A DNA stretch of 64,000 nucleotides from an uncultured Armatimonadetes bacterium. Lineage in GTDB: Bacteria; Armatimonadota; UBA5829; DTJY01. Where the stretch lies: positions 4,064,001 to 4,128,000 of the forward strand of contig OY970325.1 in the NCBI GenBank assembly GCA_963717145.1, written 5' to 3'. Both the position numbers and the translations under genes were made by a program. Below the pieces are notes generated by a model that saw only the letters and a program-made list of their open reading frames with translations, searched no databases and was not told the origin of the DNA. Positions 46,170 through 63,036 of this stretch are shown piece after piece (position 1 is the first letter of the stretch; each line of letters opens with the position of its first letter).

Positions 46170-46442
46170 TGCGATGCGTTTGCGGCGGAAGGGGCTGACA
46201 AAGCACATTCTATGGTACAATGTCATCGAGAATGGCCTGGTTCCCGAACTGTCACCGTGAGGTGCGCGTGTCCGCCGTTGGCGGAATAGGGGCCGGGCCG
46301 AACCTTTCCGGGGGGCCGGCTTCAGGCATGAGGCCGGCCTTATTCATTTTCTACCCGGTTTTTGACCGCCTGGCTGGTGCAATGCTATAATCCCCCCGGA
46401 CCGCCCGCTGGTTGAAACTGCGGATCCGGGTAAGAGAACGCT

Positions 46443-57835: not shown

Positions 57836-57929
57836 CCGCGTGATCGGTGTATCACTGCGAGGCCGGCCGGGTTCTCCGGCTGGCCTCAACATCATATGCA
57901 GGACTCTCCTCCTCTTCCGCAGAACTCAT

Positions 57930-58586
57930 ATGCAAATACCGGGGGAGGATATATATACCTTGCAGCTATCATCCAAGCGTTCTGTTTCTGTCTACGTCAT
58001 CCTGTTCCTCGTCGCCGCGATCGCCGTCTCTCGCCCGGTTCACGCGCAGAAAGCGCCGCCGGATCCGTCATTCGCCGCCGCCCAGCTCGAACTCCTGCGC
58101 GCGCAGATCGAGACCGAGAAGACGCGCATGGAGTATTACCGCACACAGACCGAGGCCAACGGCGAGAAGCAAGCCGTGCCGCTGGTGAAGAAGTTCCTGA
58201 ACGATCCGGCCGACGCGGTCGGGGCGTTCGGCGCGGTGATAGGGTTCTTCCTCGCATTCTTCGTGCTCCTGGGCAATCGGGACGCGACCCGCATGCACAT
58301 GAGGGATATGGAGTTCTACGAAACGCTCAGGCGGTTCGGTGACGGCAGTCCCGCGATGCGGGCCGGCGCGTCCGGCATACTGGCGGTGATGGGTGGAGTC
58401 CGGAATCGCCGGTCGCGTCCGTACCTCGATACGGCGGTCGACCAGCTCATCGCGGGCCACCGCCTCGAGGAGAACGACGCGGTCCGTGACGCGATGACGG
58501 CCGCCCTCAAGCATCTCATCCTCACCGATCCGATCCGAGTCCGCACCAAACTCTCCGCCGCCGGCATCAAGCTCCCGGAAGGCTGA
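57930..58586 (+). CDS. Membrane hypothetical protein
   Basis: Signal/TM segments, coiled coil; start uncertain. Confidence 0.6.
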   Translation: MQIPGEDIYTLQLSSKRSVSVYVILFLVAAIAVSRPVHAQKAPPDPSFAAAQLELLRAQIETEKTRMEYYRTQTEANGEKQAVPLVKKFLNDPADAVGAFGAVIGFFLAFFVLLGNRDATRMHMRDMEFYETLRRFGDGSPAMRAGASGILAVMGGVRNRRSRPYLDTAVDQLIAGHRLEENDAVRDAMTAALKHLILTDPIRVRTKLSAAGIKLPEG

Positions 58587-59054
58587 GTGGGAAACACGAA
58601 TGACACGAACGGACGAATAGGCTCAGCTTGCCTGTATATAAGGGACACGCACCTACTTCCAACTCAGCGTCGGAACCGTCGCCGGTTGGGCGAACAGGCC
58701 GAGCCTACGCCATGCCTCCCAGTCCTGGAAGCGCTGACCGGTCGCATCCTCCCTATTCGCGAACACCTCGCGTGAGCGTTAGTGATGACGCGGCGAGCGT
58801 ATCCGTCGCGGAGTCTTGGGCAGTTGAAGGGAGTTGCTCGTGGAGATGAAGCACGGGAGGAGGTAAGCGTGCCACGGATTCAGGTTCGCGCGGGCGTTCG
58901 GTGCGGTGTATGAGTTCGTGGAGGGGGCTGAGTGTGATAATAGCGGGTCAGACTGTTGACCATTCTGTAAATACCGTGCCTGTCCCAGTTTCCCAGTTTC
59001 CTCCGCTTGGCGTTCTTGGCGACTTGGCGGTTCCAACTCCATGCGTCGCAGAAA

Positions 59055-59097
59055 CCCCCTCGGCCCAGAGGCCGGTCCCCCTTCGTAAGGGGGACAT
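59055..59097. repeat. CCCC/GGGG-type REP; exact inverted copy at 60829-60871
   Basis: 43-bp identity in opposite orientation. Confidence 0.85.
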
Positions 59098-59197
59098 CAT
59101 GTGCTCCCCCCATCAACCATGAACCATCAACCATTGCCCAACTCCGATGTGGTATACTGTTCACTGATTACCGTTCACCGTTCACCGGAGGTAACCC

Positions 59198-60178
59198 ATG
59201 ACACGCATACGCCCGCGACGGCTGCGGGTCTCCGAGGCCATGAGGCGCATGGTCTGCGAGACCGAGCTGTCCGTCAACGATTTGATCTACCCGATGTTCG
59301 TCATGCCCGGCGAAGGATCCCGTGTGGAGATCCCATCGATGCCGGGGTGCTTTCGCATGTCGGTCGACGAGCTGTGCAAGGAAGCCGCCGAGGTCCAGGC
59401 GCTCGGCATCCCGGGGATATTGCTATTCGGGCTGCCGGAGTCGAAAGACGAGATCGGCTCGGGCGCATATGACCCCGAGGGGATCGTCCAGCAGGCGGTC
59501 CGTGCGATCAAGTCGTCCGTGAAAGACCTGCTCGTCATCACCGACGTGTGCATGTGCGAATACACGTCCCACGGCCACTGCGGGATCATCTCCGGCGAGA
59601 AGGTCCTGAACGACCGCACGGTCATGCTGCTCGCGAAGACCGCCCTCTCCCATGCGCAGGCGGGCGCGGATATCGTCGCCCCGTCCGACATGATGGACCT
59701 CCGCATCGGGGCGATCCGGGATGCGCTCGATGAGCATGGCTTCGAGGACACGGCGATCATGGCATACTCGGCGAAGTATTCGTCTGCGTTCTACGGCCCG
59801 TTCCGCGAGGCGGCGGAGTGCGCGCCTCAGTTCGGCGACCGGAAGGCATACCAGATGGACCCGGCGAATTCGCGCGAGGCCCTCAAGGAGGTCGCGCTCG
59901 ACATCGAGGAGGGCGCTGACATCGTGATGGTGAAGCCGGCGCTCGCGTACATGGACATCATCCGCCAGGTGAAGGACTCGACCGACATCCCCGTGGCGGC
60001 GTTCAACGTCTCTGGCGAGTACTCGATGGTGAAGGCGGCGGCGCAGAACGGCTGGATCGACGAACAGAAGGTCGTCTCGGAGATACTGACATCCCTCAAG
60101 CGCGCGGGCGCGGACATCATCCTGACCTACCACGCGATGGATGTGGCGGAGGGGATGGGGCGAATGGTTGATGGTTGA
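59198..60178 (+). CDS. hemB: Porphobilinogen synthase
   Basis: [38 protein letters not shown]. Confidence 0.97.
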
Positions 60179-60233
60179 TGGGGAATGGCTGATGGGGGAA
60201 CGGTTCATGGTTGATGGCTGACGGGGACCGGAA

Positions 60234-60340
60234 CCCGCTAGTCCTGAGTGCGCCTCTGGGCGTGTATCGAAGGACGGCCTACGGAGTGCCACAAGGCCGT
60301 CCTTCGATACACGCCCAGAGGCGCACTCAGGACTAGCGGG
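60234..60340. repeat. Perfect 47-bp-arm palindrome (same family as 1420-1533)
   Basis: 60234-60280 is the reverse complement of 60294-60340. Confidence 0.9.
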
Positions 60341-60376
60341 TCCTGTTGTGCAGGGCTCAACCCACGAAGTTCCCAC

Positions 60377-60745
60377 AAAGAAAGAAGGCCGGCGATCACT
60401 CGATCGCCGGCCTTTCGGCTAGGTACGAAGTTGGCTCAATGAAAGCATCTCGCGGTTGTCTCGCCGCTGACGAATGCTAACCCCAGACAGTCCACCGCCA
60501 GCGCCCGCAAGGCCTGGGGAACTGCGCACCGATCGGTCTGGTAAGCGCATGATCCGCCGAATCTCTCTGTGGCGGATCAGCGTGGGCAAGGGAGTCGCCC
60601 GTCGCCGATCTTCCGGCATATGTTCCAATCGCTGGTCGCGGTGAAATCAATGAGAAGGGATACAGAAGCGGTACGCTGGTCAAAGAGGATCTAAGGCACA
60701 GCCACGCATCTCTTTCTCCTACTTCGACGGTCTGGCGCCGTCTTC
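60377..60745 (-). ncRNA. Candidate ~365-nt structured RNA (with a 9-codon mini-ORF)
   Basis: TTGACG-17-TATATT (60780-60752), chain of hairpins with minus-strand G-U pairs, intrinsic terminator 60377-60415. Confidence 0.55.
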
Positions 60746-60828
60746 TATAACAATATAATGCGGATACCGAATTCCGTCAACCGGCAAAAATACCTGTTTT
60801 GCGAAAAAGATGCGGGACGCGTCGGAAG

Positions 60829-60930
60829 ATGTCCCCCTTACGAAGGGGGACCGGCCTCTGGGCCGAGGGGGTATGTCTGCATGCAAACCTCCCCCGGCCT
60901 GCTGGCCGGCCCCTCCTTCGTAAGGAGGGG
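60829..60930. repeat. CCCC/GGGG-type REP pair
   Basis: tcccccttacgaaggggg ... cccctccttcgtaaggagggg. Confidence 0.8.
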
Positions 60931-60933
60931 CGC

Positions 60934-61737
60934 TTACAGGATCGGGGTCTGCGAAGGGATTCTGTCGCGGAAGAGAGTGATCGCCTCAAAGCCCGCCGAC
61001 CGGATCACGTCCAGTCCCCGCTCCAGACCGAAGCCCAGGTGCTCCCCGAGATGCGCGTCTGAGCCGATGGTGAGCAACTCCCCGCCGAACTCGCGGTACA
61101 GCTTGAGGGTCTCCAGCGCGGGGAACGGCTCCCCGCACGGCTGACGATATCCCGAGGTGTTCACCTCCAGCGCGATTCCCCGCTCGATCATCGTCCGCAG
61201 GATTGCCTCGATCTGCTCGCGGTACGGCTCGATGCTGAACGGGCCGAGGTACTTCACCCCGAATCGCTTGACGAGGTCGAAGTGCGCCAGGACGTCGAAG
61301 TTGGCGCACTCGGCCGCCTGCAGGACCTCATCGAAGTACCTGCGATAGAGGGCGACCCAATCGGTCGTACCGGTCTGAAAGTCGACCGAGACGACCGCAT
61401 CGCCGACCCAGTGGATGCCGGCGGTGAGGAAATCGAACTTCTCGTCGCCGAGGACCCGCTCGATCTCGCGGGGATAGAGGTGCGGCTCACCGAGTTCCGC
61501 GCCCTTGAGAATGCGGAGACGGTCGCCGAAATGCTCCCGGCAGTCATCGACATCGCGGGCGAAGTCGGCCGCATCGAAGAGGCCATAGCACTGGTCGTCC
61601 GGATTGCTGTCGAGGTGGTCGGTGAACGCGATCTCAGTCAGGCCGCGCTCGATGGCGAGGCGGCACATCTCCTCGACGGAGACGTGTCCGTCGCCGGAAT
61701 GGGTCGAATGAACGTGGTAGTCGATCAGGTGTGTCAC
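60934..61737 (-). CDS. PHP-domain histidinol-phosphatase (HisJ family)
   Basis: DYHVHSTHSGDG, FTDH, AHFD, LEVNTSG, GSDAH. Confidence 0.88.
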   Translation of the reverse strand: MTHLIDYHVHSTHSGDGHVSVEEMCRLAIERGLTEIAFTDHLDSNPDDQCYGLFDAADFARDVDDCREHFGDRLRILKGAELGEPHLYPREIERVLGDEKFDFLTAGIHWVGDAVVSVDFQTGTTDWVALYRRYFDEVLQAAECANFDVLAHFDLVKRFGVKYLGPFSIEPYREQIEAILRTMIERGIALEVNTSGYRQPCGEPFPALETLKLYREFGGELLTIGSDAHLGEHLGFGLERGLDVIRSAGFEAITLFRDRIPSQTPIL

Positions 61738-61778
61738 CCCCTAATGTTATCCGGCCCGGGCATACTCTCCTTGGGCAC

Positions 61779-61848
61779 AAGAAAAATGGCCCGCAGGGTG
61801 TTCGCCTGCGAGCCAAGTAAGTAAGGAGAAAAAGATGTCTTTTTCAAC
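61779..61848 (-). ncRNA. Candidate sigma54-dependent sRNA, copy A
   Basis: Promoter 61859-61874; conserved core; GC hairpin plus U-tract. Confidence 0.65.
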
Positions 61849-61858
61849 TGGGGATATC

Positions 61859-61874
61859 TGCAAGAATCGTGCCA
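61859..61874 (-). promoter_or_regulatory. sigma54 promoter
   Basis: TGGCACG-ATTC-TTGCA. Confidence 0.8.
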
Positions 61875-61975
61875 ATCCCGGCAATAATGCCTGCCATGTA
61901 GCATATTTCACGAACTTATCACATTCAGCACATGCGGCGTTCACGAACAAACGCCTATCAGGCGGTTTGGAGGGC

Positions 61976-62044
61976 AAAAAAAGAGAAGCCTGCGAGATTT
62001 TCCCGCAGGCTCGTAAGGAAGGAGAAATAGATGTTGTTTCCAGG
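61976..62044 (-). ncRNA. Candidate sigma54-dependent sRNA, copy B
   Basis: Promoter 62055-62070; same core; hairpin plus U7. Confidence 0.65.
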
Positions 62045-62054
62045 TAGTATTACC

Positions 62055-62070
62055 TGCAAGAATCGTGCCA
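62055..62070 (-). promoter_or_regulatory. sigma54 promoter
   Basis: TGGCACG-ATTC-TTGCA. Confidence 0.8.
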
Positions 62071-62163
62071 ATTCGTGCAACAAGTCGGGGAAAGGTCAAA
62101 AAGAGTTGGAGGCAGGGGGCAATCATTGAGGCACACGTGATCGATGATGCGTTGGCAGTGCAC

Positions 62164-63036
62164 TCAAGAATCCGAGGTTCCGGCAACTGCAGAGCTCGTC
62201 ATAGTACCGGTTGATATGACGTATGGCTGGTATACATGCGTCGTCCCATCTAGAGCCAGAAAGCATCCTCTGCTGCAGACAAGAAGCGCTCGAGTGTGGA
62301 AGTATATACATCCACTTTCTGCGAAATTCTCGGCGGTCAGATATCGATTGTGCATCACTCTGTTTCGGAGAGTCCGAAGTTCGTTCAGTTTGTAATAAGC
62401 GCCCTTTCGAATAAAGACATTCCGGAACACATCTGCCCAGCAAGTCGCCTCATCTATGATCTTGGGCAAGTCTGAGAAGTCAGCGTAGAATATGTCGTGC
62501 ATCCTCTCAAAATCATGTTCAAGATCGTTCTCCTCATCAGACTTCCGATTGCCACACCTGCGCTGGATGGCAAGTAGATCTGGCTCAGCGCTGACCGTCC
62601 ACCAGTCCATGCCGTAGCATCTTGCCATAGATGCGGCGATGCGACGCCGAAGTTTGTTCTCCAGATCATGCAGGTCTGCATATGTCTTGATGGTCCGTTG
62701 GCGGCCTATCCCATCGTAGCTCAACATCCACCATGTGAAATAGGCAGACGCGGCGTATTCAATGCGAGTCTTGGCCTCTTGCATCTCCGTCTCTCCAGCT
62801 TCCTCGCCACCCTCCAGCATGATCTGGAACACGTTTGGCGATCCTCCGCTCCATCTAATCCTAACGAACACACCTTGTGCCAACCCGGATACCTCGCTCT
62901 GAGCTTGGAGGCCTGGCTGTAACTCGAAGTCTGTCAGTTCCATTAGCTCCACCATATCGGTACTGGCCTGAGCATCTGGTGAGTTATTGAGAGCGAGGTA
63001 CTCCACTTGGTTACTTGCGAGAGCAGGTGTGGTCAT
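62164..63036 (-). CDS. Swt1-like HEPN domain protein
   Basis: LENKLR, YADFSDLPKII, LRNRVMH (RxxxxH). Confidence 0.72.
   Translation of the reverse strand: MTTPALASNQVEYLALNNSPDAQASTDMVELMELTDFELQPGLQAQSEVSGLAQGVFVRIRWSGGSPNVFQIMLEGGEEAGETEMQEAKTRIEYAASAYFTWWMLSYDGIGRQRTIKTYADLHDLENKLRRRIAASMARCYGMDWWTVSAEPDLLAIQRRCGNRKSDEENDLEHDFERMHDIFYADFSDLPKIIDEATCWADVFRNVFIRKGAYYKLNELRTLRNRVMHNRYLTAENFAESGCIYFHTRALLVCSRGCFLALDGTTHVYQPYVISTGTMTSSAVAGTSDS

Follow-up and report, generated by a model that had tools for sequence, protein, structure and literature searches.

We report here a structured RNA of ~365 nt encoded on the minus strand of a 64,000-nucleotide stretch of DNA from an uncultured Armatimonadetes bacterium (GenBank assembly GCA_963717145.1, contig OY970325.1, positions 4,064,001 to 4,128,000), which we refer to as the window. 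The unit occupies positions 60377-60780 of the window, and we are highly confident that it is a genuine non-coding RNA gene representing a new, clade-restricted family. Judging from complementarity that has been kept between genera, this long RNA probably pairs with a family of small RNAs (sRNAs) that are preceded by sigma-54-type promoters, and chiefly with one member of that family, which we call sRNA5. On the further proposition that it takes part in an RNA-RNA module, either as a decoy that mimics a ribosome-binding site (RBS) or as a target, we are evenly divided.

Anatomy and conservation of the long RNA

An earlier note, made from the letters of the window, had described the unit as a sigma-70-type promoter followed by a 5' hairpin, a Shine-Dalgarno (SD) sequence with an AUG that opens a 9-codon open reading frame (ORF), a series of hairpins and an intrinsic terminator. 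This anatomy was accurate in every detail that we checked (Table 1). No second promoter-like site was found in 58600-62400, and between the mini-ORF and the terminator lie ~270 nt that are rich in hairpins. We infer from the promoter and the terminator that the unit is transcribed and where its transcript ends lie, with a start near 60745. The predicted fold contains many hairpins (-147.6 kcal/mol, z = -2.57; none of 100 shuffled sequences folded as well). The reverse strand does just as well (z = -2.71), and the fold energy therefore gives no strand call. The minus strand is instead assigned from the promoter, the terminator and the G-U pairs in conserved helices; read from the opposite strand, those in the 3' domain would turn into A-C mismatches, in support of the assignment.

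We searched for homologues by sequence, by pattern and by covariance model. In the source genome (G000), the long RNA is flanked by a PHP-domain phosphatase gene (60934-61737, upstream, same strand) and by a convergent hemB/ALAD gene (59198-60178). BLASTN over 41 relatives returned one homologue, in a genome of another genus of the same family (G001), which keeps this gene order together with the promoter, the 5' hairpin, the SD and AUG (SD/AUG), the 3' blocks and the terminator. A pattern scan of genome representatives gave the G001 record alone, and the same kind of scan of metagenome contigs gave a full-length close relative (L053), a contig with only the 3' part (L054) and one identical to G001 (L055). 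The covariance model R1, run over 53 genomes of the class, added a copy in a third genus (G006, E = 0.004); model R2 scores this copy at 8e-22, but was built with it included. The three genera are related and of soil type. The G006 homologue is ~270 nt long, without most of the central domain, and keeps the promoter, the hairpin, the SD/AUG, the 3' blocks and the terminator. It sits 2.9 kb downstream of the PHP orthologue on the same contig, behind two inserted ORFs on the opposite strand, which rules out that the long RNA is the 3' untranslated region (UTR) of the PHP gene. The two inserted ORFs (G006:C4; L013 2368-3534 and L058 3-1034) are 388 aa and at least 344 aa long; hemB is not found at this locus, where the downstream gene is the orthologue of window ORF 57840-58586. 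Nor does the unit have the setting of a cis-acting leader or riboswitch: the gene beyond the terminator is convergent in all three genomes, namely hemB in G000 and G001 and a different gene in G006.

Altogether, the long RNA was seen in three of the 53 class genomes, corresponding to three of the 10 genera of the family, and on two metagenome contigs. Across the three genera, the whole unit is kept as blocks, while the flanking repeats and the neighbouring genes differ. Downstream of the more distant PHP orthologues of two other genomes (G009 and G007, 54% and 53% identity), no such RNA was found. Five weaker R1 matches in the class (E 0.012 to 1) fall in apparently coding regions and were not counted; the same was done with two R2 matches among 151 genomes of the phylum (G101, E 2.6e-4; G011, E 0.072), which are without the conserved blocks, the promoter and the terminator. 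Only four or five distinct sequences of the long RNA, from one small clade of genomes that are not independent, enter the comparisons, which makes the covariation and co-occurrence statistics given below weak.

The Rfam search that the earlier note had proposed placed neither a known family nor a housekeeping RNA at the locus. With the covariance models of Rfam 15, no family reached its gathering score within 60377-60780, and even with the E-value limit raised to 10, the locus gave nothing beyond terminator-level matches (asX1, 21.3 bits against 70; suhB, 16.4 against 41). RNase P RNA (RF00010) and 6S RNA (RF00013) have no match at the locus and were found elsewhere in the genome, at G000:C1:3580208-3580619 (271 bits) and G000:C1:3075589-3075774 (78.7 bits), respectively. 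The same is true of tmRNA (RF00023), of which ARAGORN finds none in the window and whose genome copy is at G000:C1:169206-169558 (156.5 bits). The absence of a convincing long ORF, also remarked on in the earlier note, was borne out, and no reading frame is conserved: the longest minus-strand frames (68-69 aa, with TTG starts) are not kept in the G001 homologue. Six-frame translations revealed no frame common to G000 and G001, whose conserved nucleotide blocks lie in different frames and are split by indels of lengths not divisible by three. We therefore rejected a protein gene, intact or frameshifted.

The conserved 3' domain contains the invariant blocks GUCUGGGGU(U/C)AGC, UUGAGCC(A/G)AC and CCUAGCCG. 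In an alignment of five sequences, all cells of its helix H1 (60541-60536 with 60488-60483) are paired (100%), and three changes affect one side only and yield G-U; in helix H2, pairing reaches 93%, and both partners are altered in four pairs. The covariation score of the domain was higher than that of 499-500 of 500 shuffles and of all slid controls, in an alignment that was fitted to the model, which favours structure, and that includes two near-identical rows. Elsewhere in the molecule, one pair of the 5' hairpin changes from A-U to G-C in G001, with G and C also in the G006 row, while the other five pairs are invariant; one pair of the terminator stem changes from C-G to U-A in G001. In the central domain, the hairpin at 60580-60550 is 9 bp long in G000, whereas in L053 it measures 5 bp and its loop is GCGA. 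Single-base variants taken from contigs of four soil and sediment metagenome runs include 60551 C>U, which converts a G-C pair to G-U.

Two alternative pairings are predicted within the long RNA. CCAGAC (60541-60536) and CCCCAGGCC (60519-60511) are alternative partners of the invariant GUCUGGGG (60488-60481); both are present in all four homologues, and their competition may constitute a conformational switch. The SD, for its part, is predicted to pair with a pyrimidine-rich, anti-SD-like element in G000, L053 and G006. The equivalents of this element, GCAUCCUUCUCU in G006 and GCAUCCCCUUCUCA in L053, still pair with the SD, and the variant 60662 U>C, common in the metagenome contigs, changes a G-U pair of this internal helix to G-C.

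A family of sigma-54-type sRNAs and its predicted targets

The window contains two sRNA genes, A and B, each made up, in this order, of a textbook sigma-54 promoter, a CU-rich core and a terminator, with predicted transcripts at ~61850-61783 and ~62045-61975, respectively. They belong to a family of ~75-nt sRNAs that occur in tandem arrays of two or three copies, share the CU-rich seed CAUCUUUUUCUCCUUCC and have no match in Rfam. Arrays were present in all five genomes searched (G000, G001, G006, G007 and G009); because G007 and G009 are among them, the sRNA family is more widespread than the long RNA. The source genome encodes two sigma-54 proteins and Hfq. Further loci of the family lie at G000:C1:3764492-3764600 and 3764905-3765010, and at L033, L034, L035 and L036.

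We next asked where the seed could bind. Genome-wide, 28 sites pair with the 14-nt seed without gaps (Watson-Crick and G-U pairs), two of which are the antisense of sRNA-type seeds. Among the other 26, at least nine are RBSs, with the start codon, of proteins that have a signal peptide and a PEP-CTERM tail; the G000 genome has 49 PEP-CTERM matches. The exact 14-mer of the SD/AUG site of the long RNA has five genomic copies. Apart from the one in the long RNA, each stands at the start of an ORF with a signal peptide, and three or four of these ORFs also encode a PEP-CTERM tail. Because the seed fits at least nine PEP-CTERM RBSs, the sigma-54 sRNAs are best read, from their sequences, as translational regulators of PEP-CTERM genes.

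Against the SD/AUG stretch of the long RNA, sRNA A can form 14 contiguous pairs, one of them G-U, and a further 4 beyond a 1-nt bulge, and sRNA B can form 13 of 14, both exactly as the earlier note had counted. That note had also held that the recurrence of the 14-mer near the locus was unlikely to be due to chance. With up to two mismatches, the window contains three copies, where 0.46 are expected, and only one of 100 shuffles reached three. However, two of the three copies are in paralogous sRNA genes and so amount to one coincidence rather than two, and the seed fits many genomic sites.

In each of the three genomes with a long RNA (G000, G001 and G006), the best duplex of every sRNA core, eight cores in total, falls on the SD/AUG of the cognate long RNA. 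The best sRNA of each genome reaches -24 to -28 kcal/mol on this site, a value matched by 0-1 of 300 dinucleotide shuffles. Within a crude set of 5,809 SD-bearing start sites in G000, the SD/AUG site ranks second for sRNA A (one site is better) and 29th for the consensus core (28 are better). The earlier note had named conservation of the complementarity in relatives as a check, and we found it kept in three genera: 13 to 18 pairs form in G000, G001 and G006, and L053 has a 16-nt match to the consensus seed. Where the genera differ at this site, the changes are purine transitions that face the U-run of the seed, with the result that 13-16 contiguous pairs survive everywhere. Extended seed complementarity that is kept in relatives is what a base-pairing sponge would be expected to have.

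sRNA5, the candidate main partner

We came upon sRNA5, a fifth sigma-54-driven member of the family, by scanning for 12-mers with complementarity to the long RNA; it is located upstream of an ORF starting MAGDVRGY (L066 854 onward). Each of its three hairpins presents sequence that is complementary to the long RNA. Hairpin 1 carries the seed in a 19-nt loop, and in G000 this seed, CAUCUCUUUCUCC, is a perfect 13-nt Watson-Crick match to GGAGAAAGAGAUG of the SD/AUG site. In the consensus fold, hairpin 2 displays AUGGCUAGG in a 9-nt loop, whereas in the terminator hairpin GUUGG belongs to the stem and CUCAA to the loop, so that the third block runs beyond the loop into the stem. This third pairing would join GUUGGCUCAA to UUGAGCCAAC. 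The partner blocks of the last two hairpins, AUUGAGCCAAC and ACCUAGCC, are colinear with sRNA5, as an antiparallel duplex would demand.

The exact complementary words shared by sRNA5 and the long RNA in G000 are 13, 8 and 11 nt long. To gauge the part outside the seed, we compared the sRNA5 tail with the long RNA minus its SD region, counting exact words only, in 1000 shuffles. For G000, a longest word of at least 11 nt occurred in 5 of the 1000, and one accompanied by a second word of at least 8 nt in none. The corresponding figures for G001 were 28 (at least 10 nt) and 7. A repeat family was ruled out as the source of this complementarity, because the 5.37-Mb genome contains just three copies of the 10-mer GTTGGCTCAA, one antisense to the long RNA, one in sRNA5 and one within a coding region.

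A search of the 53 class genomes for orthologues of sRNA5 yielded only two, one in G001 (88% identity) and one in G006 (84%); sRNA5 and the long RNA therefore occur in the same three genomes. The loop positions of sRNA5 that are complementary to the long RNA do not vary among these genomes, unlike the remainder of the terminator loop (UAAC, AGUC, ACC). In UUGAGCCAAC, G006 has one A>G change and a contig of run X2 another; both would face a U of sRNA5, so that a wobble pair is kept. Next to the CCUAGCC block, the flanking pair reads A-U in both G000 and G001 and G-C in G006. The strains in runs X1 and X2 likewise have a long RNA with G rather than A at 60424. When the two RNAs are folded together, the minimum free energy (MFE) dimer contains a seed-SD helix of 13, 16 and 18 bp in the three genomes, for a gain of about -10 kcal/mol.

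A proposed mechanism and what weighs against it

These data suggest the following scheme. The long RNA would carry, behind a protective 5' hairpin, GGAGAAAGAGAUG, a copy of the RBS typical of the PEP-CTERM genes of this genome; the mini-ORF would be a throw-away, and a structured body with invariant single-stranded blocks would follow. The long RNA would pair with the CU-rich seeds of the sigma-54-dependent sRNAs, with sRNA5 as a dedicated paralogue and its main partner, whose hairpin loops (and, in the third, the stem as well) would contact the SD/AUG, ACCUAGCC and AUUGAGCCAAC. This seed pairing would compete with the internal anti-SD element and with ribosomes. As for the direction of control, we favour a decoy, or sponge, that would titrate the sRNAs, thereby setting a threshold for their repression of PEP-CTERM mRNA translation. 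The decoy is favoured because the site is an exact copy of a PEP-CTERM RBS and no protein worth regulating follows it, and because the extra contacts would give the long RNA an advantage in affinity over the true targets. In its fullest form, the scheme makes the three-contact complex of sRNA5 and RBS mimic a threshold device for the whole regulon of PEP-CTERM secreted proteins (exosortase-sorted and exopolysaccharide-associated), with the availability of the decoy gated by the internal anti-SD element and by a switchable 3' domain. We offer this fullest form tentatively, as possible rather than probable.

Several observations weigh against this scheme. The seed is anti-SD-like and fits 26 other genomic sites, and the SD/AUG site is not unique. 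The duplexes of sRNA B and of the third G000 copy are modest, with 16 and 43 of 300 shuffles as good. A naive whole-genome duplex scan, which allowed unrealistic loops, left the SD/AUG site outside its top 25. The conservation of the complementarity is suggestive of pairing but not decisive, because pairing with the internal anti-SD element or binding of ribosomes would also conserve a purine-rich SD strand. With respect to sRNA5, the exact-word test is not significant in G006 (at least 8 nt in 413 of the 1000 shuffles; with a second word of at least 8 nt in 79), where a single G-U pair breaks the 10-mer in a test that counts exact words only. The three genomes that have both RNAs are each other's closest relatives, which makes their co-occurrence a single evolutionary event. 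The change in the pair flanking CCUAGCC is not clean intermolecular covariation, because the base on the sRNA5 side covaries with a hairpin partner inside sRNA5 as well. Blocks 2 and 3 (ACCUAGCC and AUUGAGCCAAC) are not part of the MFE dimer, since they would require the sRNA5 hairpins to open, and the well-conserved 3' domain exceeds the needs of a simple sponge. Finally, the adjacency of the long RNA to sRNAs A and B is not conserved, as the arrays of G001 and G006 are on other contigs. From the linked RNA-RNA module of the earlier note, the non-coding unit with its conserved seed complementarity is retained; the linkage to neighbouring sRNAs finds no support, and neither does the option of a micropeptide mRNA, which is taken up below.

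Alternative explanations

A serious rival of the decoy is that the long RNA is itself the regulated party: its function would reside in the 3' domain, through a protein, a ligand or an RNA partner, and the sRNAs, chiefly sRNA5, would switch it off or remodel it. That domain is the best conserved part of the molecule and its helices have covariation support. Moreover, blocks 2 and 3 overlap predicted internal helices, which means that binding of sRNA5 would remodel the fold, and the ability of both CCAGAC and CCCCAGGCC to pair with GUCUGGGG is reminiscent of a switch. Yet we can name no target, ligand or protein for it, no aptamer in Rfam matches, and the exact identity of the site with PEP-CTERM RBSs is more simply explained by mimicry; on balance we consider a regulated target unlikely, if still to be reckoned with. 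We judge it no more probable that the long RNA is structured without interacting at all, with the SD strand serving as one side of an internal helix or as a stabilising landing pad for ribosomes, and the match to the sRNAs arising as a by-product of their anti-SD character. The predicted internal helix with GUAUCCCUUCUCA-type elements in three of the homologues, its strengthening by 60662 U>C and the many RBSs that fit the sRNA seed all agree with such a by-product. Left unexplained, however, are the 11-nt and 8-nt colinear stretches of complementarity to sRNA5 outside the seed, the conserved sRNA5 loop letters and the shared distribution of the two RNAs; the SD strand is also more conserved than its internal partner.

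Two further explanations bear on whether the unit is a non-coding RNA in the first place. It could be the mRNA of a small peptide or a dual-function RNA, in which the peptide or the act of translation is what matters and the remainder is a long structured 3' UTR. The SD, the spacer and the AUG are indeed kept in all four homologues, and within the genus the length of the ORF and seven of nine residues are kept (MRGCALDPL in G000, MHSCALDPL in L053). However, the genus also shows two non-synonymous and two synonymous changes, and between genera the small ORF is conserved in neither sequence nor length: G001 encodes MTYRRAAY and the G006 ORF has 19 codons, so that lengths of 9, 9, 8 and 19 codons (G000, L053, G001, G006) are found and the Met is the sole residue common to the three genera. 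We consider a small-peptide mRNA or dual-function RNA very improbable. Even less credible is that there is no functional unit, merely conserved intergenic DNA with promoter-like and terminator-like sites that arose by chance. It is true that the promoter scan found one site where 1.2 are expected in shuffled sequence, but chance does not account for a whole unit that is block-conserved in three genera despite differing flanks and whose hairpins show compensatory changes.

Feature coordinates and surroundings of the locus

The features discussed above are collected in Table 1.

Table 1. Features of the long RNA, of the sRNA genes in the window and of sRNA5 (positions refer to the window unless another record is given).
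Feature	Position	Strand	Details
A/T-rich imperfect palindrome AAAACAGGTATTTTTGCCGG	60781..60800	minus	adjoins the -35 hexamer; kept in G000, L053, G001 and G006
Sigma-70-type promoter TTGACG-17-TATATT	60780..60752	minus	matches 10 of 12 consensus positions; both hexamers kept in homologues
5' terminal hairpin GACGGCGCCAGACCGUC	60742-60726	minus	GACGGC-GCCAG-ACCGUC; predicted stem, kept in relatives
SD+AUG stretch AAGUAGGAGAAAGAGAUG	60724-60707	minus	proposed sRNA-binding site and RBS mimic
Mini-ORF MRGCALDPL*	60709-60680	minus	9 codons plus stop; opened by the SD+AUG stretch
Pyrimidine-rich anti-SD-like element GUAUCCCUUCUCA	60651..60663	minus	pairs with the SD/AUG stretch in the MFE and RNAalifold helices
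Central domain	60545..60650	minus	hairpins of variable length; mostly missing in the shorter G006 homologue
Conserved 3' domain	60412..60544	minus	covariance models R1 and R2; helices H1 and H2, invariant blocks
Invariant block AUUGAGCCAAC	60430..60440	minus	complementary to the sRNA5 terminator stem-loop GUUGGCUCAAU
Invariant block ACCUAGCC	60417..60424	minus	complementary to the hairpin-2 loop of sRNA5 GGCUAGGU (GGCUAGG with CCUAGCC)
Intrinsic terminator	60377..60414 (stem 60414-60385)	minus	terminator prediction; 13-bp stem, GAGU loop, U-rich tail CTTTCTTTGT
sRNA A	61783..61874	minus	sigma-54-type promoter TGGCACGATTCTTGCA 61874-61859; seed CAUCUUUUUCUCCU 61837-61824; terminator 61815-61787
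sRNA B	61975..62070	minus	sigma-54-type promoter 62070-62055; seed CAUCUAUUUCUCCU 62033-62020; terminator 62012-61986
sRNA5	G000:C1:4341232-4341370 (L066 633-770)		110 nt, three hairpins; outside the window, 213 kb away

The palindrome AAAACAGGTATTTTTGCCGG next to the -35 hexamer may be an operator or an UP-like element. CTGGTA-N4-TACCAG, placed directly 5' of a TTGAC -35 hexamer, also occurs at about 10 other G000 promoters (for example at 4178480, 4352870, 3923071, 1934814 and 417096), one of which drives a PEP-CTERM gene and the others unrelated genes. From this arrangement, the sites look like an operator or a special class of promoter.

The intergenic DNA around the long RNA is rich in repeats. 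A perfect palindrome of ~100 bp lies between hemB and the terminator of the long RNA (60236-60336), and a second long hairpin repeat, related to 59040-59100, is located 5' of its promoter (60832-60929); both give spurious sub-threshold matches to microRNA models, and both are missing from the G001 locus. Inverted arrays of short GGTTGATGG-like repeats flank hemB on its two sides (59100-59190 and 60160-60235), the downstream array supplying the last hemB codons (...GMGRMVDG*), and this type of repeat adjoins the long RNA in the metagenome contigs L053 and L054 as well. The sole Rfam match at gathering level in the window is a DUF3800-IX RNA (RF02968, 58 bits) at 46234-46303 on the plus strand.

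Discussion

Several known systems resemble parts of the scheme proposed here. In Vibrio cholerae, QrrX is reportedly a separate transcript with its own promoter that is complementary to the shared seed of the sigma-54-dependent Qrr paralogues and acts as a decoy that sets a threshold. In its logic, QrrX with the sigma-54-dependent sRNAs Qrr1-4 (PMC9732341) is the closest analogue that we found. Both cases combine several sigma-54-dependent sRNA paralogues that have one seed with a separate complementary transcript. The two differ in that they belong to different phyla and have no relation in sequence or structure, and in that the interaction of the long RNA is predicted only. Compared to QrrX, the long RNA has a structured body of ~365 nt, an RBS mimic with a mini-ORF and two extra blocks for one particular paralogue.

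A second likeness is to OxyS and fhlA, which form a two-site kissing complex in which hairpin loops of the sRNA contact separate sites on the partner, one of them at the ribosome-binding site. The loops of sRNA5 similarly show short complementary stretches, one of which is for the ribosome-binding region. In contrast to OxyS, sRNA5 would use three blocks rather than two, its partner is non-coding, the sites are ~280 nt apart, and the pairing is a prediction. The CsrA sponges of the CsrB/RsmZ type resemble the long RNA in their size of a few hundred nt, their many hairpins, their own promoter and terminator and their SD-like sequence. However, the loop GGA array that defines them is missing from the long RNA, in which we counted by eye five GGA in ~365 nt, about the number expected by chance on a rough estimate, and a sponge of this type was therefore rejected.

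With regard to the regulon, Haft et al. (2006; PMC1569441) tie proteobacterial PEP-CTERM genes to sigma-54 regulation and long non-coding upstream regions, and place sigma-54 promoters in front of these genes with further regulators still to be found. In Proteobacteria, then, sigma-54 drives the PEP-CTERM genes themselves, whereas here sigma-54 would drive sRNAs that fit the RBSs of PEP-CTERM genes, which the long RNA in turn would mimic. Within the limited collection of literature that we searched, we found no paper that deals with sRNAs of Armatimonadota or with the regulation of PEP-CTERM genes by sRNAs, and the control of PEP-CTERM protein families is largely unknown outside Proteobacteria.

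Should the model fail, the long RNA would still be a conserved orphan non-coding RNA that deserves an entry in an RNA family database. Should it prove true, a new structured RNA family of ~365 nt would become available for structural and evolutionary study, and the circuit would be a compact one, consisting of a sigma-54 activator, a family of sRNAs, the RBSs of PEP-CTERM genes and an RNA that buffers the sRNAs by mimicking those sites. In the fullest form of the scheme, PEP-CTERM proteins would have their first described layer of post-transcriptional control, and Armatimonadota their first riboregulatory circuit.

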